NCBI RefSeq assembly: GCF_006345805.1
Contig: NC_043012.1
Location: 31,620,001 to 31,684,000, forward strand
From: Octopus sinensis
Taxonomy: Eukaryota
Direction of reading: 5' to 3'
DNA length: 64,000 bases
Shown: positions 8,769 to 31,914 of the stretch, one piece after another
Layout: every line of letters starts with the position of its first letter
How positions within the stretch are numbered: the stretch's first letter is position 1
Made by a program: the position numbers and the translations under genes
Notes under the pieces: generated by a model
Told to the model about the DNA's origin: nothing
Seen by the model: only the letters and a program-made list of their open reading frames with translations
Databases searched by the model: none

Positions 8769-9104
8769 TATATAATTGTTAAACAGGACAACAAACGTTA
8801 AGGCAAGGCAATAGTTACAAGTCGTATACATTATTATTATTGGAATAAAAGTCAAAGTCTTGCAGCTGTTACTGGGATATCCCCAAGTAAGGGATAAATC
8901 GCTCTCGAGAGACAAATAGGGAAAAATAGGCAAAATGAGAATGGTATATATTAATGAGATGCATATATCATTCTCATTTTCCCTATTTTCCTTATTTGTC
9001 TCTGATGACAGAATAACCCATATTTTTTTGCAATAATAATAATATATACGAGTTGAGATGTTTGCCTCGTCTTAACGTTTGTTGTCCTCTTTAGCAATTA
9101 TATC
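8769..9104. repeat. fold-back palindrome P1 with hammerhead-like remnants
   Basis: Arms tataattgttaaacaggacaacaaacgttaaggcaaggcaa / ttgcctcgtcttaacgtttgttgtcctctttagcaattata. Right arm has gtct-CTGATGA at 9002-9008. Left arm on minus has gtct...gtaa-CAGCTG-ca-agac. Confidence 0.8.
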
Positions 9105-9169
9105 TATCTATCTAAAAATTAATACAGAGAGTTGCTTATTTGCAAAAAAAAAAGAAATATAACACGTGA

Positions 9170-9461
9170 CTTCATTGACCGAGGTTACCGTGGTCTTTTC
9201 TGTAGGCTTTTCTTTCCACGGGTAAACCTCACCTATCCTCCCCTTTACACTTCATATTGACATTTCTGTGATAACGATCCCTATTGATCCAATTTCCCCA
9301 CTTTATTTTTTAAATTTACCCCCCCCCCCTTTTGTCCTCTTTTCTTTCCATTTACGATCCTTTTGATCGAAAACCAAAACCCCTTCTTTTACCCCCAAAA
9401 GAAAGCTCTACCTTGTAATTTTGTCCTGTCTGTTGCAGCCCTGTGTGGCTAAAAAGAAACA
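9170..9461 (+). mobile_element. 3' end of a LINE (probably Tx1/L1 group) with (TATC)n tail
   Basis: Ends ttgtcctgtctgttgcagccctgtgtggctaaaaagaaa then (TATC)n; a related end lies at 31966-32049. Confidence 0.55.
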
Positions 9462-9551
<90 letters not shown>

Positions 9552-9590
9552 CTCTATCTATCCATCCACCCATCCATCCATCATCCATCC

Positions 9591-9622
<32 letters not shown>

Positions 9623-9832
9623 ATCTACCTTACCTACCTACCTACCTACCTATCTATATCTATCTATCTATATACATACATACATACATACATACATACA
9701 TACATACATACATACATACATACACACAAACGCACATGCACACACACGGACATGGACACACACACACATACACACACACACACACACACGGACACGGACA
9801 CACACACACGGACACGGACACACACACACACG
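9462..9832. repeat. compound microsatellite (TATC)n/(TC)n/(CCAT)n/(CATA)n/(CA)n
   Basis: Direct reading. Confidence 0.95.
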
Positions 9833-10249
9833 ACGTATACGAACTTTAGGTCAGTTACAATATTTTTCTGACATATTTCAAATTCTAAAAGCAAATTCGC
9901 TGTCGTTACCGCGTAGAAATCAGAACATCTCTTACGGCAAAATTCACAAAAACACCACATTTCCCTGTTGTCATCCGCTGTCAGATTCCCAGAATTTTTA
10001 GCTCTTTATTTATTATCAATGGGAAATACCGAAGAGGGGTTACTGCAGGCAGATTTAAAGCTGCATATTTAAATAAAATGTAGTCAAAAACATTGAGTCA
10101 TTTGCGCTATTAGAGCGCCAGGTAGGAAGAAGCTCAGTAGTATAAACACCAACAGCGTTTAACTTATTCGAACATAAGCCAAGCTGCGTTTAGGTATAAG
10201 TTCCTTATGCCTAAACAGTGCTTGGAGCAGATACAACTTAATATATATA

Positions 10250-10460
10250 TAGGGAGAGTTTACGAAAAAAAAAAAGGACGAAGACAGGTGGTGTACAAAA
10301 CAAACAGATGTATTAGTATAACTCTCAGGAATAGAAAAAGTATTTTACGTTTCGAGCCTACGTTCTTCTACAGAAAGAGACACAGAAAAACAAGGAGAAA
10401 AACAAAGAGAGAAAAAAAGGGGAGAAAAATGTGTGTTGTGGCTAACGATCTATCATGGCG
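10250..10460 (-). mobile_element. short (TA)n-embedded element with hammerhead-like motif (PLE-derived?)
   Basis: TA runs on both sides. Minus 10341-10378 reads tcttt-CTGTAGA-a-gaac-gtag-gctc-GAAA-cg-TA-aaata. Confidence 0.55.
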
Positions 10461-10483
10461 ATATATATATATATATATATATA

Positions 10484-11110
10484 TCGGTGCATTCCAGAAA
10501 TTTTCAGACTTCTTTGAGACAGATATTTGTTAATTTCAAAGGAGTAAAAAACTAAAATCTATTCCGAAGTAAGCTCCTCTGACTTCAATGCACTTGTTAT
10601 AGTACCCCAGACATTTCGTGAATGCCCCATAGAAGTCCTCAAAAATGAAGGTGTCCAGGACACCCTTAGGTAAGGTGAGCAAAAGTTTTGATGTCCATCT
10701 CTGTCAAGTGATTGTAACCGTTGTCTTGGTCCAGGTGCTTTAGGCTTTTGTCTAAAAATCCCTCCCTGAACTCCTTTAACTCCTCCATGAAGCATTGTTT
10801 GCTGACCGTCTGCACAGGAAGAATCTAGTGGAAATAGATGATACGTTTGTTATCGAAAATGGAGATAATTACGTGCTTCCCAGTGGGCTCGCGTTGCCAG
10901 GCTTCTTGTGTCAGGGAAAAACAGATGCTCGGCTCATACAAATGAGCAGTCTGAAGCATTTCATATGTTTCTAGAATTTTTGACCAGTTTAGCACAAAGC
11001 CTAGTCGTATAGCGAGCTTCCAAGTTGTCTTATCGTCTCGATTACATTCAGCAACCAAGTCAGCTGTGACCAACGGTGTTAGTGGGGTGTGTTCAAAGTA
11101 TTGCGATATG
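10484..11110 (-). mobile_element. mariner transposon remnant, internally deleted
   Basis: Minus translations AIRLGFVLNWSKILETYEMLQTA (N-terminal HTH), KHVIISIFDNKRIIYFH, and C-terminus GAFTKCLGYYNKCIEVRGAYFE*; TA flanks. Confidence 0.75.
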
Positions 11111-11157
11111 TGTAGCTATATATGAATATATATATATATATATATTATATATATAAT

Positions 11158-11193
<36 letters not shown>

Positions 11194-11218
11194 ATATAAT
11201 ATATATATATATATATCC

Positions 11219-11423
11219 TATTTACTCTTTTACTTGTTTCAGTCATTTGACTGCGGCCATGTTGTAGCATCGCCTTTAGTCGAGCAAATCGACCCCGGGA
11301 CTTATTCTTTGTAGCCCAGTACTTATTCTATCGGTCTCTTTTGCCGAACCGCTAGTTAACGGGGACGTAAACACACCAGCATCGGTTGTTAAGCAATGCT
11401 AGGGGGAGAAACACAGACACACA

Positions 11424-11454
<31 letters not shown>

Positions 11455-11612
11455 CGACAGGCTTCTTTCAGTTCCGTCTACCAAATCCACACAACAAGGC
11501 ATTGGTCGGCCCGGGGCTATAGCAGAAGACACTTGCCCAAGATGCCACGCAGTGGGACTGAACCCGGAACCATGTGGTTGGTAAGCAAGCTACTTACCAC
11601 ACAGCCACTCCA
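11219..11612 (-). mobile_element. SINE family A
   Basis: Near full-length reverse copy of 41258-41655. Confidence 0.9.
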
Positions 11613-11911
11613 GCCCCTATGTACACGGTAGAGTGAATATATTGTCTAAATTGTGCACAAAAGTGAAACTAACATTGACATCTTATTTTAACAGATATCT
11701 TTACGAAAATTACATAAAAATATCTTGAAATACTAAAGAGGAAATTTATTCAATAAAATCGCCATTTGGCTTCAAAGGCACAGAAGCCTCTGTGCCCTTA
11801 ATCATGATTTTATTTTATACTATTACAAATCTCTACATAGGAATTTACCTAAATAAGTTTATCTTATATGTTGGCGACTGAGAACATTTTTAATGATTTC
11901 ATCCTTTAATG

Positions 11912-11964
<53 letters not shown>

Positions 11965-12991
11965 ATATAGATATAATATAATTATGTATGCACATGCATA
12001 CTTACACACACACATACACATGTATAGAGTATATGCATTTGAGTATGTGTAAATGCATAAATGAATCAGTGTATGGGTGGTTATGTGTGTGTGTTGCGTG
12101 CTTCTATACGCATGTAAAGATTTTTAATGCGTTCATGTCTGCCAAAATGTATCGAAGGTTGGCTTAAGCTAATCTAGAAAGCTGAACCGGTGTTGCAATC
12201 AGCTTGTAAGTGTCGTGCACGATTTACGTTGCTAAGATGCACATATGACCTCTAACCTTTTCATTGTCTCTATCAGTAAGAGACACGTAAATTGTCTATA
12301 CGTCGCCATGCGCAAGCAGTTTGGCTATGTGCCGTTGCTGTTACTTAATCCACTAGAAATAGCAGTCACATCTTCCACAAGTGTCACCTGCAATCATTAA
12401 AAAGAACATTTTGGACATTGTTTTTTTACAATGCCGGAGAAACAACGAATTGGCCACAGCTGATTTATTTCGATCACAGGTCTGCCTTATCAGTGCAAAT
12501 CTGCTGCTAGTAAACAACAGTAATAATAACGACCACTACAAGGACAACCACGACGACAACAATGTCAACAAGAACAACAATTTTCATCTAATCCAACTAA
12601 AATTGATATTAGCATTTACACTTTTAATAATTATTATGGCCGTCAATTCATACAGTTATGTCTTCATGTTTGCTTGTGCTACGTTCTTGGCAATAGCATC
12701 TGTTAATTACCTTTCAAGCTGTCATTCAACTGCAGCTATATCTGAAGAGTAAACGCAAAATAAGTTTTAAATGTCAGAATATGAAGGAGATTTTGCAAAT
12801 GATCGGTGTCCATCAGATGGGAGGACTACATCGTAAATAGAGCAGGACAGTTAAAGTAACAGATTCTACTTACTGTATTTGTGCAAACAAATAGAATGGT
12901 AACCGAGAAATGAAAAGCATTTGGTTGGTTTCTGTCCTCTTTATGTATTTTCGAATCTTTTTTTCTTTTTAAATTCAATATGAAATATATA

Positions 12992-13225
12992 TTTCTTTAC
13001 TACCCACAAGGGGCTAAACACAGAGGGGATAAACAAGGACAGACAAAGGGATTAAGTCGATTACATCGACCCCTGTGCGTAACTGGTACTTAATTTATCG
13101 ACCCCGAAAGGATAAAAGACAAAGTCGACCTCGGCGGAATTTGAACCCGGAACGTAACGACAGACGAAATACGGCTACGCATTTCGCCCGGCGTGCTAAC
13201 GTTTCTGCCAGTTCGCCGCCTTGTT
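12992..13225 (-). mobile_element. SINE family B, young copy with 20-bp TSD
   Basis: aattcaatatgaaatatata duplicated at 12972-12991 and 13226-13245; intact tRNA-like head and gcctttcatcctttcggggtcgataaa-type core. Confidence 0.92.
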
Positions 13226-13640
13226 AATTCAATATGAAATATATACAATAGTTTGGCGTAAGGTTAGCAATTTCGGAAGGTATGTGTGTGTGTATGGGGG
13301 AGGGGTGCAAGTCGAGTACATCTACCCGAAGAGGATGAAGCAAAGTGAACCTCGGTGGAATTTGAACTCAGAACGTAAAGACAGAAGAAATGCCGTTATA
13401 AACAAACTACCCGGCGTGCCAGTGATTCTGCCTGCTCGTCGTGTTATATGATATAAATATAAGCTACCTACTCCTACGTTCTGAGCTGAACTTAATTTAC
13501 AATCAACTTAGTTTTAATAGGATCCACTTCTACTAACTAAATGGTAGTCAGACTGTAATGTACAACCATTATAATATTAACACTAACTTCATAACTAAGA
13601 CATTGTAGGTATTTACAATTTCACTATTACAAAACTGCAA

Positions 13641-13865
13641 CGGCGGCGGGCGGGCTGACAGAATCGTTAGTGCGCCGGACGAGATGTTTAGAAGCATTTC
13701 GTCTGATTTTACGCTCTGAATTAAAATTCCTTCGAGGTCGGTTTTGTCTTTTATCCATTCGGGTTCGATAAAATAAGTACCAGTGAAGTACTGGGGTCCA
13801 TGTAACGGAGTGACCTCCTCCTCCAAAATTTCAGGCTTTGTGCCTATAGTAGAAAGGATTATTAT
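13641..13865 (+). mobile_element. SINE family B
   Basis: Head, core and aaatttcaggctttgtgcctatagtagaaagg tail. Confidence 0.8.
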
Positions 13866-14115
13866 AGAAACCACAAAGGACGTTCACTCTCGTCTCAACA
13901 ACCTTATAGGGCCAAGAGAAATCAATACTTGCTCCCCGTCTGCATACACACCCTGAGCATATGTCAAAACATGAACATTAGCATCGGGGGTTCTTAGACC
14001 CATGGGACACTGCCAAGCAACTAACTTGTTTGGTCACGCCTTAACATGAAATGGACTACTACTTGAATCGTGATTAAGTCTAACATATCATTAGCTGAGT
14101 AATATTTATCCCCAT

Positions 14116-14635
14116 AAGGCGGCGAGCTGGCAGAATCGTTAGCACGCCGGGCGAAATGCTTAGAGGTATTGCGTCTGCCGTTACGTTCTGAGTTCAAATT
14201 CCGCCGAGGTCGACTTTGCCTTTCATCCTTTCGGGGGCGATTAAATAAGTACCAGTTACGCACTTTGCCTTTCATCCTTTCGGGGGTGATTAAATAAGTA
14301 CCAGTTACGCACTGGTGCGTAACTGGTACTTATTTAATCGCCCCGAAAGGATGAAAGGCAAAGTCGACCTCGGCGGGATTTGAACTCAGAACGTCGATAT
14401 ACTCGACTTAATCCGTTTGTCTGTCTTTGTTTGTCCTCTCTGTGTTTAGCCCCTTTTGGGTAGTGAAAAAGGTATTTCGTCTGCTGCTACGTTCTGAGTT
14501 CAAATTCCGCCGAGGTCGACTTTGCCTTTCATCCTTTCGGGGTCGATAAATTAAGTATTAGTTACGTACGGGGGTCAATCTAGTCGACTGGCCCTTTTCC
14601 CCAAAATTTCGGGCCTCGTGCTTAGAGTAGAAAAG
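14116..14635 (+). mobile_element. composite SINE family B insertion (dimer with internal duplication and inversion), 15-bp TSD
   Basis: aatatttatccccat at 14101-14115 and 14636-14650; segment 14315-14394 is the reverse complement of about 14183-14263. Confidence 0.9.
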
Positions 14636-14654
14636 AATATTTATCCCCATTTAA

Positions 14655-14922
14655 ACATAGATGTTTTGGTAGAGCAAATTATACTGCGGTAGGTACCATG
14701 AGAGAAACCCTCGTATTGACTTTTGGTGCAAAATACAATCTTGTTTACATAGGAAGCGGGGAGAGAAACACGTGCCGCCTCTGGTGCCAAGATCACCAGA
14801 TCACATGATTTATCTCTCTGTTAGAGATAGGAACAAGAGTGCATTTAACAACAAAAGTCAATATGAGAGTTTCTTTCATGGTATCTACCGCTGTATAGAT
14901 TATTCCAATAGAACATTTAGTG
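14655..14922. repeat. fold-back palindrome P2 (MITE-like, no ribozyme motif seen)
   Basis: tatactgcggtaggtaccatgagagaaaccctcgtattgacttttg / caaaagtcaatatgagagtttctttcatggtatctaccgctgtata; centre tctggtg-ccaagat-caccaga. Confidence 0.75.
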
Positions 14923-16130
14923 GGTGTTGGTGATGGCTTTGGTGGTGGGGATGTTACCGTTCGTTATTAATGCTCTCTCTCTGTCACTAATAAATATTCA
15001 TTAGCAAAGTAACATAAAATTAATTAAAAACAATAAAAGAAATGAGTTAATTGGTATTCTTTAAAACTATATTTAAATATCTTCTTTTGAATCATTTTGT
15101 ACAGATAGGAATCTCGTGAGATACTAAATAAACGTAGTATATCACTTTTGGCACCCTGTTTCTCATATGTTTGGTAAATAGTTCAACAAAAAAGCAAGTA
15201 AGACTTACGTTATTGGCTATTGTATCGCAAATATAAATACATTTTAATTACGATAGAAGCAAATTATGATATAAAGCAAATGTTTCTTTCGCCTATGTTG
15301 ATTCTTAATTTTTTTTCGGCGTAGAGACATAAATTTCGAGAGGATGAAAAGTTGTGGTGCCAAGATTTCTGAAAATAGTTCCCGTTAATCTCTGCAATCA
15401 CACATCGGTATTTTTATTATCCTCTACTAAACTATATGTGTGTATGTATGTATGTATGTATGTATGTATGTATGTATGTATGTATGTATGTATGTATGTA
15501 TGTATGTATGTGTGAGTGTGTGTGTACCTACATGCGAATTTGCGGTGTGTATATGTGTGTGTGTGTGGATGTGTTGTGTGGTGTGGTGTGTGTGTGTGTG
15601 TGTATATATATATTATATATATACGTATAGGTAGATAGATAGATTTGTTAGATAGATAGATAGAGAGAGAGAGAGAGAATGTGTGTGTGTGTGTGTGTAA
15701 ACTGAAGTAAATGCTTATATGAAAATACCCACTGCTTGTGCGTATATGTGTATATTTGTAAGTGTATGAGTGTATGAAAAGTATGTAGATGTATTTGTTA
15801 TATGAATTGTAAAATAGACATTCAGACAGTATAACCAATGTATTCTACCCGGACCCTTATTTCTCCCTTTTTCTAAACAGGAGCAGATAATCCAGCATAC
15901 AGAGATGGCTATATATATATATATATATACCAAATGACTCAGACATTTATAATAAATGTCAGTAGAGGCCAAATGTAACTAAATACTTCCAAATCCAATG
16001 TTTAATTTAGTTGCTATATAAAACCTACTTCTGACAAGCGTGATTCCAAGCCTGTAAACAACTTATTACGACAAACTTCGTAACAGACACATACGTACAT
16101 ACAAACATATATATACAAATATATACATTT

Positions 16131-16163
<33 letters not shown>

Positions 16164-16202
16164 CACACACATATATAAATAAATATGCATTCATATATAT
16201 GT

Positions 16203-16252
<50 letters not shown>

Positions 16253-16758
16253 GTGTATATATATATATATATACATACATGTACATGTATATATACATAT
16301 ATATGTATATACATACGCGTACCAACATACACACGCACACACAAACACATACATGCACGCACACACCACATACATAGATAAACCAAAACCTGTGATACTT
16401 AAACGTTTGCTGAAGTCGTTACAGACAGACATATTGCGAAGAAAAAATAAACATATCAATTGAAATGTTTATGATTGTGGCGGGAAAATCTGGGTGGGGG
16501 GGAAGAAGGAGTGAGCGAGTGTGCGTGGTTGTGTGTGTGCGCGCGAATGAGAGAAAGAGACAGAGGGCGAGAGAAAGAGTGAGAGAGAGAGTGAGAGAGA
16601 GTGAGTGAGCACAGGAGCAAGTGGGAGAGAAACTAGAAAATTCGGTAAATTCTTTTACATATATCAACATTCTATTTTATAAACAGTGTTGACAAAACAC
16701 ACCCGATATTTCTGGCCGTGAAGGATAAAAAGTGCTATTACTAATAATATATATATAT

Positions 16759-17033
16759 ATATTCTGTTGTGTCTGGGGAGAGTCATTTTCTTTTTGTGCC
16801 TTATTATTTAACACACTCACCGGTAGCATTTCCACTTATTTCTTATTTTTATCGTCCTAAAATTTGCGTGTTGCAAACTTTTCAATAGTTTTGACTCTAT
16901 TTCAAAACTTGAAAAGGTTGCAAGACGCAACGAAAATTTTAGGACAATAAAAATAAGTGGAAATTCTACCGGTGAGTGTGTTAAATTAGAAGGCACAAAA
17001 AGAAAATGACTTTCCCCAGACACAACAGAATAT
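16759..17033. repeat. fold-back palindrome P3 with UUGAAAA hammerhead-like core
   Basis: Arms attctgttgtgtctgggga... / ...tccccagacacaacagaat. Plus 16908-16945 reads c-TTGAAAA-g-gttgc-aagac-gcaac-GAAA-attt-TA-ggac. Confidence 0.85.
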
Positions 17034-17706
17034 GCATCAACACGCGAACTCATATAAAGAATCTTGCAAGCCAAATCCAAAAACGAAATATATATATCCC
17101 AGGGTTTCAAGTTCGATAAAAGGAAAGTGTTGGTTGTTAGCGTGAAGCTAATTAATGAGTTTGGCAATATTTTTAGCAACCGACGTAAATTTAGCGATAG
17201 AGATCGAACCGGATAGCAGGTCATTGTACTAAAATCTATATTAAGTATTATAAATCACTCTTAATACTTTTAAATCTAATAGATCGTGTCAGTAATTAAT
17301 TAATTGAGCTTGTGCTTGTCACATAACTTAAATGATGACATTTAAAAGAAGACATTTGTGCTAACAATCCCTAGCTCATTAATAATTTCTGGAATAAGGA
17401 AAGGTTTGCAGATTTTTAAAGAATTTTTATGAGAAGAGGGAATTCGAATTGACGATATTCATGCATTTCCAAAGATTAATAACAGTTCAAATGAAGTGAA
17501 ATATTTGTAAACGAGAACCTAAAGCGATACTTCGCCAGTTTTCTACTAAATGTGTTGTAATCGTTATTCTAACTTCAATAATATCAATAAATATCTCCGG
17601 ACAAACTAACAATTAATCATGCTAAAAAAACAACACATTTTCAAAACCTTAAATATTCAGTAGAAACATGGAATGCACTCACGCGCGTGTATGTGTGTGT
17701 TTACAC

Positions 17707-17757
<51 letters not shown>

Positions 17758-17916
17758 GTATACATATATGCATGAATATGTGTATTTATATACATACTAT
17801 ATACATACATACATATATATACATATATATATATATAATGTAATATAATATACAATCATATATATATGAATATATATATATATATACACACACACATACA
17901 TACATACATACATACA

Positions 17917-17947
<31 letters not shown>

Positions 17948-18230
17948 GCTAAAGATAGTTGGATAAAATATTAAGCACTTAGTTGTTAGGGCAACGTATA
18001 CATTAGTCATGTTCGAAATGAAGACAATATCTGTGGTTGGCAAATGTTTATCTAATTAATTATTAACACTACTTATTAGTTTTAAAAGTAATAATTGTCA
18101 TTCTTAAAAATCTCTAAATATTTTTAGCCATCTGTCATTGGAATTTCAAACTGTTGTGATATCCTAAAATACATTCGTTTTTCTGGCATTAAAAAAGAAA
18201 TAACGCCAAGATGAATTTCATTACACGCAT

Positions 18231-19615
18231 TGTTGTGCGGACTCCCCTAGACGATAAGTAGGCCAGTCCAATACGTATAAATGGTGGACGTGATAGCTAG
18301 TGAGAAGCGTCGAGTAGAGAATGTTTGAGTTGTTGATTTAGTCTGGCGATAACGTGGTTATTGAGAGCGGTGAGTTGTTGCAATTTGCATTTTTTGAAAC
18401 TGTTATTTGTTGGAATTTTGAGATTTGTTAATTATTGTTGACTTTGTTTACTTCTTCCCCATTTTTGGGTGAAGATATGGAAGCTGGTAGTTACGTGGCA
18501 GTGGCGAGCAAAAGCTCGCTAACCGACGTCCTACAAAAGAAAAATATTTTAAAGGAAAATTTTTTAAAGGAAAAATATTTTAAAAAGTACCAAAGATTTT
18601 TTTTTTTAAAAGAGGGAGACTGTCTCAGGCTGATATCCCCGGTAGAAGCGATGGAAAGGGCAGAAAAGAAAATAATTACTTACAGAATTCTGAATGCCTG
18701 TGTGAAGTGAAGGGAGTAACGGCGTTCTATACTCGTAGAAGGAAGTACGGCATGGTGGAGGTTCGCTTCGTGAACGTGGATGAAGCGAAAAAGTACGCCA
18801 CGGTGCCGTTGAGATCAGCCAGGTGGGTACTGTTGCCAACCTATCGTGGTAAAAGGACGACGAGAGTACGGATAGGGAGAGTGCCGCCCGAAATAGATGA
18901 GGAATGGCTGGTGGCAGCTATCATGTACAACTGTGAGGAGGAGACCGAGACTATCAAGGTGGTGAAATCGGCAGAGATAAACTGACGGGGATATGGGCTG
19001 GAAATTATGGTCCATATAATCCTGCCAGACTTACACAAGATAGCAGAGGAGTTGGTGCTACCCGATGACACCTGGTTGAGAATCGTGGTGGAGGGGAGAC
19101 CACCGATATGTTATAATTGCAGTACAAGGGGACACATGAAGGCAAGGTTTCCCAAGAGACAAGAGAAAAGAGCGGAGAACCAGTCAGAGGAGGAAAAGGA
19201 GGCGGAAATAGTAGGAAACAGAAAAAGAACAAGTGCGGAGTCACCGGCAAAAAGCCCGAAAAAGAAGAGAAAAGCGGAAAAAGTACAAGAGAAAAAATTA
19301 GTAAAGAAAAGAGACAAGATTGAAACTGGAACCCCAGAACCAGAGCCTACAATAAGTAGGAGAGAAGAAATAGACAGAGAGGAGAAATATGAGGAGTGGA
19401 AAGAGGAAGTAAGGACGAAAATGGAATATGTGAGGCAAAGAAAGCAGCCGACTGGACGACACTTAAGAATGATGATAATTTACGATAAGAAAGTGGAAAT
19501 TGAGAAAAAGATCGCAAAGGTGAAGAATTTAATAAGAGTAAGACTAGAGGAAGAGGTGTTTGGTCGCGAGGAAAGAGCAGTACAAGCTGGCATGTTCAAA
19601 GGAGGTAATAAGTGA
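18231..19615 (+). pseudogene. non-LTR retrotransposon ORF1 (gag-like, RRM-like region plus CCHC zinc knuckle) with 5' leader, disrupted
   Basis: Frames 18435-18710, 18707-18985 and 19007-19615 join via a frameshift and an in-frame TGA. Motifs VRIGRVPPEI and VEGRPPICYNCSTRGHMKARF (CX2CX4HX4C with the last C changed to F), then a Lys/Glu-rich tail. Cut at the 3' end by a SINE. Confidence 0.75.
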
Positions 19616-20112: not shown

Positions 20113-20954
20113 ACTACCGCGAAGTAATAATGTCAATCAGCCCATCACATTTTAAACATAACCACTTAACTATGAACACTTGATAACGAGGAAATGAAAT
20201 CAACTTGTTGATATAACTTTTATAATGATGTCTTTCATAGGAAAATAGTTATGGTTGCTCTGACCTCTTTCTACGTGACTATTTGTATGATAAGCAAAGT
20301 TCATAAGCTAATCAAAGAGAGTTTACGGTATTTACATACACGACTTCTAAGACTTAATCTTATACCGAATCATATTAAATTTCTATTTTCGTGAGGGTGA
20401 GAAAGTCAGAATCAACGTTATAAAACTTGTTGATATCAGAATAATAAAGATCTGTGATCTTTAAGTAACTACATAAGTCAGGTCAAGGGATCATATTTGT
20501 GGAGCGAAATAATTGCTTGAACCAAATATAAAGTTCCTTGCATTGAGGGACAGCACTTTATATTCTTGGTTCAAATTACGCCAAGGTTATCTTTGCCTTT
20601 TGCCTTTCATCCTTCTAGGGTTCATCAAGTAAAGTATTTTTCCCATTATTTCAGTCGTTGGACCGCGGCCATGCTGGAGAACCAGCTTGATGGGTTTAGT
20701 CATTGAAATCGTCCCCACTACTTATTTTTTGAGCCTAGTACCTTTCCATCGGTTTCTTTTTTGCCGATCTGTTCAGTTACGAAGATGTAGACAAACAAAC
20801 ACTGGATGTCGAGCGGTGGTTGGGTACAAACACAAACACAAAGACACACACACACACAAACAAACACACACATAAAAAGAAGTCGGTCTCTAAGGCACTT
20901 TCTCCGCCCCATCCTGCTATTGCACCAGCTCTTCTCCGCCAGCTCTTCGCCATC

Positions 20955-20999
20955 CCCCTCCTCCTCCTCCTACTACTACTACTATTATTGCTACTGCTG

Positions 21000-21081
<82 letters not shown>

Positions 21082-21140
21082 CGCAGCCGCCTCTGATGCT
21101 GCCACTGCTGCCGCTGCCGCCGCCGCTACTGCTGTTGCTG
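20955..21140. repeat. (CTC)n-(CTA)n-(CTG)n-(CCG)n trinucleotide series
   Basis: Direct reading. Confidence 0.95.
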
Positions 21141-21218
21141 CGTATTTTATGTATATTTATGTGCGCGCGAATGTGTATGTGTGTGCATATGTGCACGCGG
21201 ATATATATGCATAAATTA

Positions 21219-21261
<43 letters not shown>

Positions 21262-21316
21262 ATAGATAAACATACATATAAACATGAATATTTACACACA
21301 TTCATGTGTGTGTGTA

Positions 21317-21363
<47 letters not shown>

Positions 21364-22306
21364 GCACATATCACCTAACAGACTAATATCAGAATTAGAA
21401 GAAATCCCAAAGTGGACAAACACAATAACCTCAATGCAACAAGTATGCAACAGTGATAGAATGAAACTCCACTAATCTGTAGAAGAGATGGGGGAGACGT
21501 GCAAGGAGGAACCTTAGGAGACAAGTACTAAACTTCCGGAAGGGCTGTACCTATCATCAAAACACAGTTCACAGCTTAGGATTGAAAATTTGCCGATATC
21601 TCAAAGTAAATGGGAAACGTCCATGAAAAGTATATAAATGTATTAAGGAAACCCATGGGTACACTCTCTAGTATTAGGCAAGAAGTGCAGAGTGAGTATT
21701 GATTCCCTCCTTCACCAAAAGCTAGTTGCAAAAGGGAGGCTATGGAAACGGTAGTAGTAGCTAGGGCGTTGATTCGGCGTGGCCACAACACTTAGAATGG
21801 TTTTAGTAAAATACGAAGAAAACAAGGAATATGTACATACACATTTATACATACAATCGATTATACAAGTCAACAATCCTGTGGTGCAACTCGTCTTTCA
21901 TATGAAGGTGTCCGCGGACATCCTACAATATTTTCCGTACTTTAGATAAACAGCTTCCTCCTTCTACAAAATGTTATATATTATCTAATTAATAGACACT
22001 CACTTAAATTTCCGCATTCTAATTCTCTGAACTTCGCTGATAATATAGCCAGCGGAAGCGGCAGAAAATTAAACACTATTGGTAATTACTTAAGTATTAA
22101 TAACGATTCTTGTCGTTCGTCCATATTTAGTACATACCCCATTAATAATACTCATGAAAGTGAGAAGAATTGTACTATTGTTAGTAACTATTGTACTATT
22201 GTTTACGTTAGTAAAAAAAAAAAAAAAAAACATTAGTAAAGATAAAAACAATGTTGCTTCACTACTTAGTAAACCTGATATTTTATGGAAGTGTAGAGAT
22301 AGATGT

Positions 22307-22696
22307 GGTGGTGGAAGCACTCCGTCGGTTACGACGATGAGGGTTCCGGTTGATCCGAATCAACGGAACAGCCTGCTCGTGAAATTAACGTGTAAGTGGC
22401 TGAGCACTCCACAGACACGTGTACCCTTAACGTAGTTCTCGGGGATATTCAGCGTGACACAGAGAGTGACAAGGCCGGCCCCTTGAAATACAGGTACAAT
22501 AGAAACAGGAAGTAAGAGTGAGAGAAAGTTGTGGTGAAAGAGTACAGCAGGGATCACCACCATCCCCTGCCGGAGCCTCGTGGAGCTTTAGGTATTTTCG
22601 CTCAATAAACATTCACAACGCCCGGTCTGGGAATCGAAACCGCGATCCTATGACCGCGAGTCCACTGCCCTAACCACTGGGCCATTGCGCCTCCAC
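22307..22696 (-). mobile_element. tRNA-derived SINE family C, full length, 12-bp TSD
   Basis: agagatagatgt at 22295-22306 and 22697-22708. Head ggaggcgcaatggcccagtggttaggg...ggtttcgattccc; 3' end cctcatcgtcgtaaccgacggagtgcttccaccacc resembles an RTE-type tail. Confidence 0.9.
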
Positions 22697-22894
22697 AGAG
22701 ATAGATGTAATAGCCTTTTGAAATATCAATGACCCTGTAAGAATATAGTATATGTTTCTTCCTGATAACGGGGTTACTGCAACGGTACTTAAGGCGAGGT
22801 TGAATAATCATGAACATTCTTTTACATTCAAGAAGTAATTACGTAGCACGTCTTTAGTAAAGTTAATCTGGGATTTGAAAGACAAAAATATAAT

Positions 22895-23110
22895 TTCAAA
22901 TTTTGGCACAAGGTCAGTAAGCTTAGAGGAGGGGGTCAGTCGGTTATATTGATTCACGTGCTCAACCGGAACTTATTATATCGACACTGAAATGATGAAA
23001 GGTAAAGTTGATCTCGGCGGAGTTTGAACCCAGGACATAAAGACGGACGCAATGCCATAAAATAAAATATTTTGCCCGGCGTGCTAAACATTTTGCCAGC
23101 TCGCCGCCTT
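22895..23110 (-). mobile_element. SINE family B, diverged
   Basis: Core plus gccagctcgccgcctt head on the reverse strand. Confidence 0.75.
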
Positions 23111-23659
23111 ATAGCAAAATTATAAATCACTCAGTTTCGTAATCTATTATATAAACTGCATTTCCATGTAAATGGGGTGTTCCGTGAAGACACTTGAAAT
23201 TCTGAAATGAAAGTCAGGTCTAATTCATAAATATAACGAGCTGTTAATTAAAAAAAAAATCTACTCAACTTATGATTGGCAGAGAAATACATAAGTACGA
23301 ACATATATATTTATACTGTCTGAATTTCTTTTCCCGCTGTTACTACAATTCATCGTCAGTTGGTCTCGGATTACAGTACTGTTCCCCTATAATATTAGAA
23401 ATGACTTGTTGCTAGAACTTTATCTCTCAACTTATTTTTTATCTCCGACATATCCCGCTTTACACTTCATTCTTAAATTTCCTTGTAAGTCTAGTGTGTA
23501 TTTTGATTTAGTGTGTATATTCATTATTTACATATATCTGTTTATTTAATCAATTATTGTATATATGTGTATACATGAATCTATAGCGGTGTATGTGCAT
23601 GTATGTATGTATGTATGTATGTATGTATGTATGTATGTATGTATGTATGTATGTATGTA

Positions 23660-23992
23660 TGTCTTGCCTCAGTAAAGCTGGACTCAAGAGTCATCTTCGT
23701 AGTCATAAAGCGAGACAGATGATTGACAACCAGGCCCATGGTGGTGGTGTTACACTCCATAGTAATCCTATCTGCCAGGTATGTAGAAGGGAGTGTAATT
23801 CGACGGGAGGACTTAAACGACATGCAAAGGTACATGAAGCCCAGTTACAACTACAGCCGGCTATTGCCGGTAAAGATTTTAGCTGCCAATTCTGTACAAG
23901 ATATTGTAGATGTTTAGCTAGGCTAAAGAGTCACCGATAACAGTTAAACCGCATGCAATGGCCATACTCGATAACGAGGGGGCAGCCATCAT
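23660..23992 (+). mobile_element. RTE-clade LINE 3' end encoding tandem C2H2 zinc fingers
   Basis: CLSKAGLKSHLRSH, CQVCRRECNSTGGLKRHAKVH, CQFCTRYCRCLARLKSHR*, then a short 3'UTR atggccatactcgataacgagggggcagccatc; (TATG)n on both sides. Confidence 0.7.
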
Positions 23993-24007
23993 GTATGTAT
24001 ATGAGTT

Positions 24008-24071
<64 letters not shown>

Positions 24072-24628
24072 ATATATATATGCGACCTCGATATGTGAAT
24101 CGTTTTGAACGCAAGGACGTTACTTCTGTTTCCCGAAGATTCCTACAGCGGGAAAATGGGACTCGACTCACTTGTTTGACGTATCCACTTATACCGATTT
24201 TTTAAACTCGATATCCTAACAAAATGTACAAACACCTACAGTTCGACCCACGTAGGAGTGATGGTCTGGGAATCTAAAGCTAAATGATTCCAATATCTTG
24301 CATTCTCCATTACGTGAACCTATCAAAAAAGAACAAAAAAATACATATGATCTGAAATAACGTGCGTGTGTGTGTATGTATATGTATGTGTGTATGTGAT
24401 TTTGTGTATGCGTGTGTGCTGGGTTGTGTGGGTGTTGTGTGTGGGGTTTGTGTAAGCGTATATGTGCGTTCCTGTGTATATGTTCGTGCGTGCTTGTGCT
24501 TACGTGCGTGGGTGCTTGTATGTGTGTCTGTGTTTATGCCCATGTGTGTGTAATTGTGTGCGTGTCTCTATGAGTGTGTATTGTGTGTTTTGGAGGTATG
24601 GAATAACTACTGTGAAGCATTGTGTAAA

Positions 24629-24877
24629 ATATATTGTATAAAAGATCGTGGGTAAGACCAAAACAATGAGAAGTAAATGCAAGGTAAATCACAAGAAAAC
24701 GAATATGTGAATTAATGTAGACTTACCTTGTATTCAATATTTCGGGGTTATGACCCCATTCTCAAGAAATTGAATACAAGGTAAGCCTACATTAATTCAC
24801 ATATTTGTTTTCTTGTGATTTACCTTGCATTTACTTCTTATTGTTTTGGCTTTACGCATGATCTTCTATACTATATA
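24629..24877. repeat. fold-back palindrome P4 with a hammerhead-like motif as its loop
   Basis: Roughly 105-bp arms (aagtaaatgcaaggtaaatcacaagaaaac / gttttcttgtgatttaccttgcatttactt). Confidence 0.9.
24733..24768 (-). ncRNA. candidate minimal type-I hammerhead ribozyme, U3-A8 variant
   Basis: Minus strand: ttc-TTGAGAA-t-ggggt-cata-acccc-GAAA-ta-TT-gaa. Stem I ttc/gaa, 5-bp stem II, palindromic ATAT stem III. Confidence 0.55.
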
Positions 24878-24998
24878 TATATGTGTGTGTATATATACAT
24901 ACATATATACATATATGTGTATGTATATATGTATATAATATGTGTGTATCTATACATACATATATATATATATATGTATGTATATATATATATATATA

Positions 24999-25052
24999 TG
25001 GCGGTGCCCCAGCATGGCCACAGCTCGTGAGCTGAAACTAGATAAAAAAAAA
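24999..25052 (+). mobile_element. orphan LINE/SINE 3' tail inserted in (TA)n
   Basis: ggcggtgccccagcatggccacagctcgtgagctgaaactagataaaa; reverse copies at about 42478-42528 and 53858-53896; shares its start with the SINE A tail. Confidence 0.65.
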
Positions 25053-25061
25053 TTATATATG

Positions 25062-25092
<31 letters not shown>

Positions 25093-25175
25093 GTATGTAT
25101 ATATATATGTGTATATATATATACATATATATATATGTATGTATATACATATATGTATATATATATATACATACA

Positions 25176-25223
<48 letters not shown>

Positions 25224-25924
25224 CATGTGTGGGTGTGTATATATATATATGTATAGATGTGATATACATATATATATTCTGTGTTTACCGATACAAGGAA
25301 ATATTTTTATAAATCTGTATGTGTATCCGCAGAATAAGAAAAAAATCAGTAGCATGACATATGTAGAAAGTAAGGCCGGGGAAGATGAGGCAGTAAGAAA
25401 ATGGTAGAGGTTGTAGGAAAAAGAATAAAAAAAAAAGCATTCTACTGGCTGCGAAATCATGGTTGTTGGCATGCAAATCAAATATTGTGGATTTTCAGGA
25501 CACATGGCGTCTTGAAAAAGTTGTAAAGCTTTAGCTGACTAACAAAGTGTGGAATGTGCGTTATTGGATGACCTCGTCTAAACACTTCTCTGTTACCACG
25601 GAAACGAACGGCTGATACCGATGACATACAACAGTTTTGGCAGCTAACTGACTTTGCATATCTTTCCCCGAAATATCCTGCAAAATATTTCGCTTACATC
25701 AAACGTTGATGCCTTGCACAATGTAGTCGGCATCACATTAAGAGCTATATCGTTGAGCATGCTCCAAGGAGCTTCTCCTACAACAAAAGCCAAATCTACT
25801 CGCTATATTGTTCAAAAAGTTAAGAATGAAATCTTTCAATTATATTTGAGGTTTTCTACGGTTAATAACAACGTACGAATTGTGTAGTGATTTCATTTAC
25901 CAATATTTAATAACTGCAAGACAG

Positions 25925-26360
25925 CAAAATGGCAGAATCGTTATCGCGCCGGATAAAATGATTAGTGGTATTTCTTCCGGTGAGATGGCAGAAACGTTAG
26001 CACGCCGGACGAAATGCGTAGCCGTATTTCGTCTGCCGTTACGTTCTGAGTTCAAATTCCACCGAGGTCGACTTTGTCTTTCATCCTTTCAAGTACCAGT
26101 TACGCACTGGGGTCGATGTAATCGACTTAATCCGTCTGTCTGTCCTTGTTTGTCTCCTCTCTGTTTAGCTCCTTGTGGGTAGTAAAGAAATTAGGTATTT
26201 CTTCCGACTTTACGTCCTGATTTCGAATCACGTCGGGGTCGTCTTGGAGGTTCATCCTTATGGGACAGATAAAAAAAGTACCAGTTGAGCAGTGAGGTCG
26301 ATATAGTCAACTTACCCCTCCCCCGAGATTGCTGACCTGCGCCAAAATTCGAAACAAATA
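25925..26360 (+). mobile_element. nested SINE family B (young copy inside an older one)
   Basis: ggtatttcttccg occurs before and after the inner copy (about 25967-25979 and 26195-26207). Confidence 0.75.
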
Positions 26361-27404
26361 TTTAATACCTGCACGAGGGACGATGTTATGATCTAAGAGA
26401 CTTTCTCATTGGGGAATGTTGCAATTAGTGTTAATCTTATCCTTTGTTGGGTGATATATGCAGCATAAATTTGATATGGAAAGAATTTCAGAGGAAAGTA
26501 GTTCTAGGGATAAATGAAGGAGTATTTCTGACGAGCTATGGCAGTAGTAATAAGGAGAAAATTTTGTGCGGCTGTAGGATGGGGCCTAGGGTTACGCATT
26601 TTAACAGTTTAACGAAATGTAAGATTGTTTGGCGTTTGGACTCCAATTGTAATATATTCTGCTGTTGGTCGACACCAGTAATACTTTCTTTAAGATGATA
26701 ACCACTGATCAACTTGCATCTACATCTTTCAGGACGAACAAGATCTAATTACATAATTACTTGAACACAATAAAGCAAATGTGAATACTGCTTCTCAGAT
26801 GATGCAAGCAATAACCAAAGCAGACGAGCCGTAGCAGAACAAAATATTATTAAAGGCATATTCATAAAAACATCGCCAGGGAAGCTCCCGAATACCATAA
26901 GTGGATCCGCATAAACTGTCCAACACGCGCAAGACTTCATCCCCGAATATGTCCTTAGCATATAAGGGGACTGTTAATCTCTCGCCTTGACGATACTTCA
27001 AATATAGCTGTCCAGTGGGGCAAATTCAGAAGAGCTAAAAGACCTGGGGTCACATAATAACATGCTAATCGCAGACGTTGCTGGGCATGGATCACCCTTT
27101 CTTTATCATGTGAGCCCTTGATTGATGCAGCAAACATCAGCCAACTTTTAGCTGCTGGGTGATGGCCTTTATTGAGCGCCTGCGATTCCGTTGATAATGT
27201 CTTGAAACGCTGGATAAAATCGATGGCGGCCTGATAACGTCTGATTGCTAATATCGCTTTTTCTCTCTTGGAAGCCTAAAGCTATTTCCGTTTCTGAACA
27301 CAAACGACACAAGCATATCCAAGAAACTGATTAACAATTCTTGACCATCAATATTCTATATAGTCACATGTGTATCTATATGTAATATATTATATAGTAT
27401 ATAT

Positions 27405-27435
<31 letters not shown>

Positions 27436-27440
27436 CACGC

Positions 27441-27473
<33 letters not shown>

Positions 27474-27548
27474 CTATGTATATATATATATATATATAAT
27501 ATATATATATATGATATATGTATATATAATATATATGTATATTATATA

Positions 27549-27599
<51 letters not shown>

Positions 27600-27607
<8 letters not shown>

Positions 27608-27879
27608 GAAATGAGGTACTTAGAAATCTAGATGATATTTACAGATATTTTTAGTATGTTACATGCTTTATAAATCATATATCATACAATAGCGCTTTCG
27701 TCCATTCTAGTGGAGTTTTCAAATTGAATAATTTGAAAACTACAGTTCAATTTGAAAACTCCACTAGAATGGACGAAAGCGCTATAATATGATGTATGAT
27801 TTCTAAAAACATGTAACATACTAATAAATATCTGTAATATAAAGCCATCAGATTTCTGAGTACCTCATTTCTTCTAATA
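27600..27879. repeat. fold-back palindrome P5 with UUGAAAA hammerhead-like core in both arms
   Basis: Arms attagaagaaatgaggtact / agtacctcatttcttctaat. Plus 27752-27784 reads TTGAAAA-c-tcca-ctagaa-tgga-c-GAAA-gcgc-TA, with an exact reverse copy at about 27690-27722. (TA)n on both sides. Confidence 0.9.
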
Positions 27880-27967
27880 ATAATACCTGTACATCATCTC
27901 CAAACTTCTATTATATATATATATGTACATACATATATATATGTATATATACATGTATATATATATA

Positions 27968-28032
<65 letters not shown>

Positions 28033-28196
28033 TATATATCCATATATATATCCATATATGTATCATATATGTATAGCTATGTGGTAAGGAGTATGCTTCC
28101 CAACCAAATTGTACGCGTTCAGTACCTGACCCGGCCAATGCCTTGTGAATGGATTTGGTAAGCGTAAGCTTAAAGAAGTCCAACGTAGTGTGCATG

Positions 28197-28227
<31 letters not shown>

Positions 28228-28479
28228 TGTGTGTGTGTGTGATGTGGCGTGTGTGTGTATCAATGTGCGTGCTTTTTAGTCCAAAATAAAACCTGAGGCC
28301 TTGGAAGTTCCCGGTTTTGTCAATTTTCGTGTCACACTGTCGAAACTCTTCTTGAGTCAATAGTTGGTAGTAGTGCAGTGCAAGCTACATCCACTAAAAC
28401 ATTATTCATCTGCACAGTTACTTCTTGTACACCAATTCTTAGTGAAATCATTGAATTGGTTAGCAGAAACCTAAAAATG

Positions 28480-29336
28480 CACTTGCAACTTACTCTAAAA
28501 TGTCTCAAACAGATTCAGTAAATGGCGAAAAAGGCTTGGAAACGTCAAGGGTACAGGTCTGGCTCGCCAGGTGTCCCAGTATGTCGCAGGCTGGGCCCCG
28601 CCATCATCCTCCCACTGTGGCAAAAAATCTTCAAGAAGAAGTGAAAATGCATATCCTCTTAATTTTGGCTGTTGGAATGTGCGTACACTTCTTGATGATA
28701 ATTTCAACAAGAGCCCAGACAGGCGTACTGCACCTATTGCCTGTGAGCTTTAAAACTATTCTCTTGATATAGCTGCGCTCTCTGAAACTCGTTTCTCTGG
28801 TAAGGGTAAAATAAATGAATCTACTTATGGATTTACTATCTTCTGCAGATACCTACCTGAGGGTCAGCGTAGAGAATCTGGTGTTGGGTTTCCTCTTAAG
28901 AATTCATTAGTATCCTCCATTGCTGACTTCCCAAGTGGTATATCTGAACGAATCATGTCATGCCGTATAAAACTGACAAAAGGTAGGTTTCTTACCATTT
29001 TCAGTATTTATGCACCAACAATGTCTCAATCTGATGAAACTGTAGGACAGTTTTATGACGATCTAGCACATACTGGTCATACTGGGATATTTCAACGCAA
29101 GATTTGGCAATGACTACATTTCATGGCCTGTTTTAGACCGTCAAAGTATTAGAAATTGTAATAAAAATAGAGTAGCTCTTTTTGACATTTTGTACTGAGA
29201 ATTATCTGGGTGTTACCAACACTATTTAAGCAGAAAAATAAGTATAAAACCACCTGAATGCACCCACGATCTAAGGACTGGCATCTCAGATTATATTTTG
29301 ATCAGAAAGCGTGATATGAAAGATGATTCTAGTGTT
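28480..29336 (+). pseudogene. RTE/BovB-type LINE 5' part, AP endonuclease domain, disrupted
   Basis: FGCWNVRTLLD, DIAALSETRF, RESGVGF, ISERIMSCRIKL, SIYAPT, QFYDDL, ILGYFNAR, MHPRSKDWHL, DYILIRKRD, with stops and frameshifts. Confidence 0.9.
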
Positions 29337-29567
29337 CCCCCGAGGTGGACGGGACGCCAGTCCATCGCAGCGTTATTCAAGAAACAGGAACACAAAGTGA
29401 GAGAAAATTGTTGTGGCGAAAGAATACAACACGGGTCACCACCACCCTCTGCGAGAGCCTCGTGGAGCTTTTAGGTGTTTTTGCTCAATAAACACGCACA
29501 ACGCCCGGTCCGGGAATCGAAACCGCGATCCTCCGACCGCGAGTCCGCTGCCCTAACCATTGGGCCA
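29337..29567 (-). mobile_element. SINE family C head joined to a V-domain-like segment
   Basis: Head nearly identical to about 22520-22690, then ctgcgatggactggcgtcccgtcc instead of the family C body. Confidence 0.75.
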
Positions 29568-31416
29568 TATATATATATATACACACATACACGTTTTTAC
29601 ATTCTGGTTTTAATCATTGCATTATAGCGTTACATTATAGCTGGGCACCACATTGCAGTGTATCCTATACATTACAGTATATCATATACGTCGCAATAGT
29701 ACATCCAGCATGTATTTGAATTATGTGATTAGTGGAGTGATTTAATGGGCCTAATTAAATTTGTCTGTTGTTTTTCTGAGTTTATGCTATTTTACTTCCT
29801 TTCTTCAGTGGCATTGTTTTTCAGAGCTTTGTTTCGTTTCTGCTGCTTTGATCTCGCCCACTCATAGACACACAGACACACGTTCTGCTACTCTGAGACA
29901 AATGGTTAATTGGTACAGAATGTTTTTGAAGGCAGATTATGTTATTTTATATTTCAGATGTTAATTGTAAGATGCTTCATCTGGAGGAAAACAGCGGCAT
30001 CCAGAATCATCCGAATATATATGATGAAAACAATATGTATATGTATGTATGTGCATACGTATCTTTGTGTATGTGTATGCATTTGTGTGTAATTCTAAAA
30101 TACTTTTTGTATTAGTATATACAGGCTTGCGCACTTTGTTAATTCGATGTCTCCTTTTTCCTCGCTCTATGTTTCCGTAACACTGTTTACTACCTAATCA
30201 AAACATTCAGTCACTTCCATACTGAATTCCTTAAAACCTTCACTGCTATCGAGCCTTGATGTCTACCACGGCTCAAGGAGTTCGGGATAGCTTCCCTGTT
30301 GCCATCAATTTCATAATTCCAGCTACCCAGACCTCACCGATCAGTTTCACTTTATTACTCGTATATGAAATTACTTCTAGGAAAATATTTTTCTAATAAT
30401 GTTTCTGTTAAAAATATAAAATGATATATACATAAAAGATATTTACAACTAAATGGGAGATAATAGTGGAAATATGATGAAATAAAAGTGGGATAGAATG
30501 AAAATCAAAATTTTTGTATAGAATTATAAGGAATACAGGTGGTTATATAATTTAATTTACTTCGTAGCCGAGTATCACACTGATCACCACTTTTCTTATT
30601 TCTTATCGTTGCAACGACATTTCTTCTTCATTTCGTATTAAATATTTATACCTATTAATCTATACAACGTCATATATAAGGTATGAATATATGACTTATA
30701 TACGATATTGTATAGTCTATTCTGTTTTCATCATATCTATGCTTCAGTTTTCATAAGAATTTATATTCATAAATATATAATAGCAAATATACATTATCAA
30801 CCGTTCATAGACTTATTTCTGAAAACTTAGTGTCCAAATTTCTAATTGATCTAATAACATTGGTTTCAAATTTTGGTACAAAGCCAATAATTTTAGGGGA
30901 AAGGGGTAAATCGATTACATCAACCCTAGTGTTCAACAACCAAAGTTTAACTCGGTGGAATAATTCATGTAATAATATTAACGTTGAGTTATCGTATTAG
31001 AGTACTTAAACAGTTTCCGATAAATACGTGCCTAGGAAAATGTATTTATATTTATATAAACATGTGTGTGTGTGTAAATGGTTGAAAATGTGTTTATATA
31101 TACATATACGTGTGTGAAGAAGTGGCTGAAAATACGTTTAGGTGTACATGTATGTGTGTGTAAGTAATTATGAAAGGCAGCGAAATGGCAAAGCTGTTAG
31201 CATTTGTGAAAATGCTGTGAGAGTGTTGGACCAGATATATGAAGCGATATTTGATGCAAGTCTCTAACGTCTGTATTCAAATCTTGCTGAGATGAATTTT
31301 AGCTTTCATTTATTTTCAACGTCTGCTGCTGTAGGAAATTCAGGTATCACACAGGTAAATCTAAAATGTGGTTCTAGCGAAGAGTAAAATATAATCCAAA
31401 CAAAACAAAGAAGGAG

Positions 31417-31759
31417 TGTAACATATATTTAATGATCAGTCACGATTGTTTCTGTACCATTCTGTTTTAACAACATTGCACAAAAATCTCATGGGGAAAG
31501 TTACGTAATATCTGCAGTTTTAAACATTCGTGTGACACTTCGTCAGGCTTGCATCAAAGGGTGTGTCTGTCAAGCGTCGTATGTTGATTGACAGACGCAC
31601 ACTCTTGGAGCGCACGTTTGAGGCAAGTCTGACGAAGTGTCACGCGAATGTTTTAAACCACAAATATTACGTAACTTTTCACATCAACCTTTTGTTTGTA
31701 ATGGTGTTAAAACAGTGGCACAGAAATAATTTTAACTTGTCATAAGAGATGTGTGACAC
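31417..31759. repeat. fold-back palindrome P6 with CUGACGA hammerhead-like core in both arms
   Basis: aaacattcgtgtgacacttcgtcaggcttgc / gcaagtctgacgaagtgtcacgcgaatgttt; inner tgtgtctgtcaa / ttgacagacgca. Confidence 0.85.
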
Positions 31760-31784
31760 ATTTGACTTGTTCTATTATTTGGAA

Positions 31785-31914
<130 letters not shown>

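Follow-up and report, generated by a model that had tools for sequence, protein, structure and literature searches.

The question raised by a 64,000-nucleotide stretch of the Octopus sinensis genome (2.72 Gb; contig NC_043012.1, positions 31,620,001 to 31,684,000, called the window below) is how five imperfect palindromes described as carrying hammerhead-ribozyme cores came into being. In the original prediction, made from the letters of the window, they were regarded as several independent families of non-autonomous Penelope-like elements (PLEs) or retrozyme-like elements built around the ribozyme, and it was left open whether they move as palindromic units. Here, we followed the repeat families of the five palindromes (P1 to P5 in window order) and consider it probable that they are short insertions of distinct endonuclease-positive (EN+) PLEs, each assembled at insertion from two reverse transcripts. 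Signed positions (-8, +27 etc.) are numbered in the element's own sense, starting at the first core base of the hammerhead (C3 or U3). The following features were delimited in the window:

8633..8769, minus strand: P1 one-sided tail, ~140 nt; 13 aligned copies end at one position; (TA)n at the end
8770..8961, minus strand: P1 tail-bearing arm, 3' end of a putative Hydra-like PLE; its 5' end precedes the hammerhead core by 54 nt
~8862-8909, minus strand: P1 hammerhead remnant with mutated core, within the tail-bearing arm 8770..8961
8963..9103, plus strand: P1 inverted, tail-less arm; first hammerhead box 9002-9008, followed by a deletion of ~38 nt in which the GAAA box and helix III were lost
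16759..16898, minus strand: P2 inverted, tail-less arm; 5' end at -13; hammerhead without GAAA box
16909..17033, plus strand: P2 tail-bearing arm, starting at U3; U3-A8 minimal hammerhead 16909-16938 with an extra base before a 5-bp helix II and a palindromic helix III
17034..17088, plus strand: P2 one-sided tail with (TA)n behind it; family length 57 nt
24601..24628, minus strand: P3 one-sided tail, ~31 nt
24629..24773, minus strand: P3 tail-bearing arm, its 5' end at -8, with a minimal hammerhead at 24765-24736
24769..24878, plus strand: P3 inverted, tail-less arm with its 5' end at +27, overlapping the tail-bearing arm by 5 nt and followed by (TA)n
27600..27734, minus strand: P4 inverted, tail-less arm; hammerhead 27722-27690
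27744..27879, plus strand: P4 tail-bearing arm, its 5' end at -8; U3-A8 hammerhead 27752-27784 with a C.C mismatch at the helix II base and a 6-nt palindromic helix III
27880..27915, plus strand: P4 one-sided tail (~41 nt in the family), then (TA)n
31322..31389, minus strand: P5 partial one-sided tail (~150 nt in other copies)
31390..31788, no single strand: P5 arms, joined head to head; old family whose copies are 70-80% identical; CUGANGA boxes 31546-31540 (minus) and 31629-31635 (plus), canonical second box absent; (TATC)n at the end
90..1592, minus strand: control outside the finding, broken reverse transcriptase (RT) fragment of a young PLE family

All five palindromes were recovered at the places originally described, and no sequence match was found between any two of them, as had been claimed. 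Identity to the own reverse complement was 66, 83, 85, 87 and 72% for P1 to P5, respectively, and these five are the main non-microsatellite palindromes within the window. The ranges first given for them were incomplete, with a one-sided tail outside each and P5 arms spanning ~31390-31788; the whole insertions measure 280-470 bp. Once the real ends are used, each palindrome abuts (TA)n or (TATC)n as described; 17% of random 320-bp intervals also abut a microsatellite, in which this genome is rich (143 array rows).

Relation of the palindromes to PLE coding regions

A first look at the genome gave 1854, 2608, 1055, 1482 and 366 candidate copies for P1 to P5, respectively, and 40 candidates were scored per family. 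Long copies of four families extend into coding sequence on the same strand as the element and its hammerhead motif. For P3, this is an open reading frame (ORF) with RT and GIY-YIG endonuclease whose stop lies ~80 nt before the hammerhead; relatives of P3 carry RVT_1 and GIY-YIG domains, and the combination of a PLE-type RT with a C-terminal GIY-YIG domain in one element, which characterizes EN+ PLEs, was found with both domains in this family. A GIY-YIG endonuclease lies upstream in long copies of P4 (two copies, 38-40% identity to an intact PLE protein, E ~1e-20), P2 and P1, the last with CxCX5C, CxxC and CxH motifs in natural copies; the walks for P1, P2 and P4 reached the GIY-YIG end and not the RT core. 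P1 to P4 stand at the short extreme of a series of 5' truncations in which the long members contain a PLE ORF, and the possibility that the 5' ends of P2 and P4 are fixed, without a longer parent, was dropped after longer copies had been found. The palindromes are very probably stump insertions of PLEs, traced for P1 to P4, and P5 is likely a PLE insertion of the same kind. The prediction of a PLE origin and of inverted segments of the pseudo-long terminal repeat (pLTR) was right, and the assignment to separate non-autonomous or retrozyme families was not supported, P1 to P4 being continuous with ORF-bearing long copies.

A complete tail was present on exactly one end in 21 of 23 P2 copies, 22 of 24 P3 copies and all 16 P4 copies, and one-sided tails of P1 and P5 were seen by inspection. 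Tail lengths are ~140, ~57, ~31, ~41 and ~150 nt in the families of P1 to P5, those of P1 and P5 being four times the published 30-40 bp, which implies widely spaced RT start sites. Non-simple target duplications of 7-13 bp flank 13/21 P2 copies, outside microsatellites, and were readable in 2/22 P3 and 0/16 P4 copies, because the flanks of the latter two are mostly (TA)n. The set used for tails and duplications left out opposite-strand or identical duplicates (L003; L025, L032, L037, L042, L047) and one truncated locus (L044).

The young PLE family represented by the fragment at 90-1592 served as a control. It has 12702 candidates in the genome, intact 784-aa RT and GIY-YIG frames elsewhere (loci L192-L197) with an overlapping upstream ORF in another frame, and 4.4-kb tandems. 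Direct-repeat pLTRs in partial tandems were seen in this family and were not recovered for P1 to P5. Its U3-A8 hammerhead stands directly after an acceptor-like CAG; helices I and II are formed and the core is open in the predicted fold. An inverted arm is present in 11 of 30 copies, and all 11 arms stop 34 nt short of the tail end. The family is a natural candidate for functional study. The P1 endonuclease was missed by tblastn with the ORF of the young family and found via translation, and a homologue search with a piece of it found none, which is weak evidence. In the search with P5, the single endonuclease match (locus L359) appears to belong to a neighbouring element.

Hammerhead motifs in the palindromes and their families

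A structured descriptor of the minimal hammerhead, which allows the published U3-A8 variant and the extra base and was composed after the motifs had been seen, matched four times in the window, all within P2, P3 and P4 (two in P4). This agrees with the minimal type-I hammerheads of U3-A8 type originally predicted, for which a search allowing that variant had been suggested. The background of the descriptor was 0.8-1.4% per shuffled palindrome, with 0-3 matches in each of 20 shuffled windows. The loose pattern YUGANRA..GAA is present in 25-50% of shuffled palindromes and alone therefore shows little, and a strict scanner (CUGANGA, without the extra base) had no match in the window, the published extra base being missing from its pattern. 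The hammerhead motif is real in P2 to P4 and marks putative ribozymes. The window copy of P1 has no intact motif, the GAAA box being lost in one arm and the core mutated in the other. Both boxes are intact in most arms of the P1 to P4 families (40/58, 55/86, 52/89 and 34/47, respectively). The claim of a core in each palindrome stands for P2 to P4, applies to P1 at the level of its family and fails for P5, which has half a core.

Variation in the P4 core is chiefly at the free base 7 and the purine 8, with three variants in 19, 14 and 6 of 47 arms. Among related Hydra-like families, whose endonucleases are 52-58% identical, five of 40 loci have retained core, helix I and helix III, with a helix II loop that differs. 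The core lies at or near the axis in P2 to P4 (0-27 nt), as predicted, and away from it in P1, whose arms end 42 and 54 nt upstream, and in P5, where the first boxes are 82 nt apart. On both strands the hammerhead reads outward from the axis, so that the arms are joined head to head and an RNA starting at the axis would not include its own antisense arm. A long hairpin (-150.4 kcal/mol predicted for read-through RNA of P3) would arise only from read-through host transcripts, and the originally proposed choice between self-cleavage and locking into double-stranded RNA is not needed to describe the locus.

Formation of the palindromes and origin of their ends

Copies of P2, P3 and P4 were sampled with queries consisting of the tail and distal arm only, without selection on the axis (29 copies per family, the window copies excluded). 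An inverted arm was present in 16/29 copies of P2, 16/29 of P3 and 12/29 of P4, the rest being simple truncations or longer copies; a looser self-BLAST detected it in 18/29 P2 copies, and inverted arms also occur in P1 and P5 loci. Adjacent junction pairs were all distinct (14/14 in P2, 13/13 in P3 and 11/11 in P4, 38 in total), and many junctions overlap by 1-14 nt. The two arms of one copy resemble each other more than arms of different copies, with within/between distances of 0.046/0.063 (P2), 0.105/0.126 (P3) and 0.038/0.060 (P4; permutation p 0.0005 each), and no fixed difference between tail-bearing and tail-less arms was found save one near-even polymorphism in P2. We conclude that the palindrome is very probably made anew at each insertion. 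The inversion breakpoint, for which fixation among copies had been proposed as a check, is not fixed, and the question whether the palindromes move as units is answered in the negative by the 38 differing junctions and the likeness of arms within copies. The longer arm was the tail-less one in 28 copies and the tail-bearing one in 24, with 3 ties (55 copies, hand count); since either arm can be the longer, two separately primed complementary DNAs (cDNAs) fit better than one cDNA folding back, and it is fairly likely that two independent cDNAs form the arms.

In P2 and P4, the 5' ends of the arms pile up shortly before the hammerhead. Of those within -60..+59, 22/35 in P2 (p 1e-9) and 11/25 in P4 (p 0.001) fall into -20..-1, and ends at most 3 nt from the predicted cut are rare in P2 (2/35) and absent in P3 (0/33). 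For the young family, 27 ends fall within -300..+33; 14 of these are in -145..-100, a single one is in -20..-1, and the predicted cut has none. The offset is family-specific and far from the ribozyme in the young family, and the pile is therefore not tied to the ribozyme. The description of palindromes built around the ribozyme is not supported: the fold point differs per copy, does not coincide with the predicted cut and is 100-145 nt distant in another family. In P4, a TATA-like box precedes by 31 nt an initiator-like A (-8), the position at which an arm ends in 3/29 sampled copies and in the window copy; promoters follow a set spacing between TATA box and initiator. Judging from these sequence features, we lean towards the pile being the transcription start in the pLTR of each family.

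In the mechanism that we propose, the PLE protein would cut both strands of AT-rich DNA and reverse transcription would start at two internal RNA sites one tail-length apart, both as described for a lizard PLE (PMC11167929). Each DNA end would receive its own cDNA, and the two cDNAs would meet head to head by short homologies or filler, a joining step that we infer. Many cDNAs would end by run-off at an RNA 5' end that is specific to the family and most probably is the transcription start in the pLTR; their template would be RNA uncut by the hammerhead, possibly the first pLTR of the element's own mRNA. Because the RNA would start 8-13 nt (P4, P2) or 6-42 nt (P3) before the ribozyme, the folds would sit beside it. 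The statistics of the ends favour uncut RNA as the template and separate priming of the two cDNAs, and set the pile apart from the ribozyme. That the stumps record retrotransposition in full detail, with separate cDNAs from both target strands running off the pLTR start of uncut RNA, has in our estimate an even chance. If true, the pile offsets (-8, -11, -6..-42 and -100..-145 nt from the core) would map the promoter of each family, and ribozyme cleavage would not set copy ends in vivo. This reading could be tested directly in the young family, of which the genome holds intact frames.

A number of results weigh against this explanation or parts of it. The P3 ends are spread over -42..-6 with a non-significant excess in -20..-1 (9/33, p 0.086), P4 ends show a weak excess at the predicted cut (4/25, p 0.055), the interval -145..-100 was picked after the data had been seen, and the P2 and P4 piles roughly coincide with the 5' edge of helix I. 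P2 has a weak TATA-like run at best and P3 none. Each sample comprises the 30 candidates with the best scores among hundreds to thousands, ends were taken from BLAST edges with an error of a few nt, and part of the diversity of junctions and of the likeness of arms could stem from later loss at palindrome centres or from conversion between the arms. Two attempts to link P5, the oldest of the families, to an ORF gave no link, the walk stopping ~400 nt upstream, and in the 21 P5 arms listed CUGANGA is present and no GAAA box was found at the expected place. As to the hammerheads, no such family was among the best 150 of 336 Rfam matches listed for the window or in two targeted Rfam scans, P1 and P4 have a mismatch at the helix II base instead of the usual G10.1-C11.1 pair, and no compensatory pair changes in helix II were found within any family.

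Fold-back has been proposed as the origin of the inverted arm (PMC3846280), and the same PLE stumps could carry a mirror arm from self-priming of one folded-back cDNA or antisense RNA, with the pile as a stop or processing site at the helix I edge. The variants shared by the arms of one copy, the junction overlaps of 1-14 nt and the piles of P2 and P4 near this edge would all be accommodated. We nevertheless consider it unlikely: either arm can be the longer one, with differences of up to 550 nt that one snap-back starting from the tail arm would not produce, the ends of P3 are spread over -42..-6, and the young family has its pile 100-145 nt from the ribozyme with 1/27 ends in -20..-1.

The original view of several independent families of non-autonomous PLEs or retrozyme-like elements, extended to short palindromic copies that would serve as their own templates and move as units, can draw on the copies closest to P2, P3 and P4 being nearly all short palindromes, on the sharp pile of short ends and on the existence of non-autonomous PLE derivatives (PMC8557442; bioRxiv 10.64898/2026.07.22.740005). 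The uniformity of the short palindromes is, however, due to query selection, as the tail-anchored samples are 41-55% inverted with distinct junctions throughout; long copies reach an ORF in P1 to P4, short P4 copies lack the upstream TATA-like box, and head-to-tail hammerhead arrays were not seen in the loci of these families, to which the search was confined. Unit movement is largely refuted and this view very improbable. Still less credible are miniature inverted-repeat transposable elements (MITEs) or foldback DNA transposons with hammerhead-like strings by chance, to which the long inverted arms, the TA-rich targets, the chance frequency of the loose motif and the missing Rfam call would point. 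Symmetric fixed termini, a fixed-length duplication and a fixed interior are all absent; instead of arms matching the terminal inverted repeats of DNA transposons with fixed target duplications, the copies have one-sided tails, variable duplications of 7-13 bp, variable 5' truncation, no shared termini and GIY-YIG/RT sequence upstream, and related families, whose endonucleases share 52-58% identity, have retained this core. For P1 to P4 the MITE reading is refuted by the ORF linkage, and the remark that annotators would wrongly call the palindromes MITEs was correct. With short insertions of EN+ PLEs assembled from two cDNAs as the preferred explanation, thousands of stumps that belong under PLEs would be wrongly annotated as MITEs or as precursors of hairpins (only sub-threshold microRNA matches are obtained for them in Rfam).

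Known systems and further observations in the window

The architecture of the stumps is already in print, and they are not a new class of ribozyme-built element. PLE insertion units with 5' truncation, an adjacent inverted 5'-truncated copy, a tail of 30-40 bp at one end and (TA)n targets are described in PMC8557442, where the Penelope transcription start is placed in the pLTR and the role of PLE hammerheads and the origin of the inverted structures are stated as open. [quoted passage not shown] Minimal PLE hammerheads with a U3-A8 core, an extra base and a palindromic helix III, and motif pairs on opposite strands 100-700 bp apart, were recorded in PMC4209133. The motifs here share U3-A8, the unpaired base between A9 and helix II (P2, P3) and the palindromic helix III; unlike those hammerheads, P1 and P4 have the mismatch at the helix II base, P5 has the first box only, and all are known here from sequence.

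In Anolis Poseidon PAc in vitro, both strands were cut and extended at AT-rich targets, two RT starts defined the tail, and uncut RNA was the main template (PMC11167929). That study showed neither an inverted joint product nor a 5' end pile, and the elements here appear to belong to other clades. Non-LTR retrozymes (bioRxiv 10.64898/2026.07.22.740005) resemble the stumps in being short, non-coding and PLE-related with a type-I hammerhead. Retrozymes are defined by head-to-tail hammerhead arrays, whereas the stumps are single head-to-head pairs continuous with ORF-bearing copies; head-to-tail repeats with no linked ORF were not what we found, an ORF being upstream in P1 to P4. A literature search (outside subscription journals, Repbase and supplements) found nothing on the 5' end pile or these families, some of which may be listed in the supplementary hammerhead and family tables of PMC8557442. 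The window adds a comparison among several families, tail lengths above those in print and a control family by which the pile is separated from the ribozyme.

By its endonuclease motifs, the RT not having been recovered, the P1 family matches Hydra-like PLEs: it shares with the Hydra clade (PMC8557442) the CxCX5C linker, the endonuclease motifs CxxC and CxH, a preference for (TA)n as target and a CUGAUGA hammerhead, and differs in its tail of ~140 nt and a long asparagine-rich stretch upstream of the endonuclease. This in-frame stretch, rich in Asn and Thr, occurs in P1 and related families (L295:4114-4713, L417, L431) and resembles the N-rich inserts of rotifer Penelopes (PMC3846280). The Hydra-like endonuclease has 9108 candidates in at least two identity groups (~70-80% and 52-60%); the Hydra clade was described from few families. 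No P5 arm was found near 70 Hydra-like endonuclease loci. In the P4 family, the 3' untranslated region of ~1 kb (loci L290/L291, ~4950-5900) contains internal direct repeats with (CA)n runs.

A sixth non-microsatellite palindrome, missing from the original list, lies at 14680-14897 (72% self-complementary), with no match to the hammerhead descriptor or near the 70 Hydra-like endonuclease loci. Pfam gave one sub-threshold match (zf-RVT) for seven ORF pieces of the window. Fragments resembling ORFs of other non-LTR retrotransposons lie at 48773-49824, 28754-29113 and 18584-19615 (all plus strand), and longer inverted pairs of dispersed repeats, probably SINE-like, at 13055-14589, 40328-41654 and 54874-56291, the last with arms of ~480 bp.

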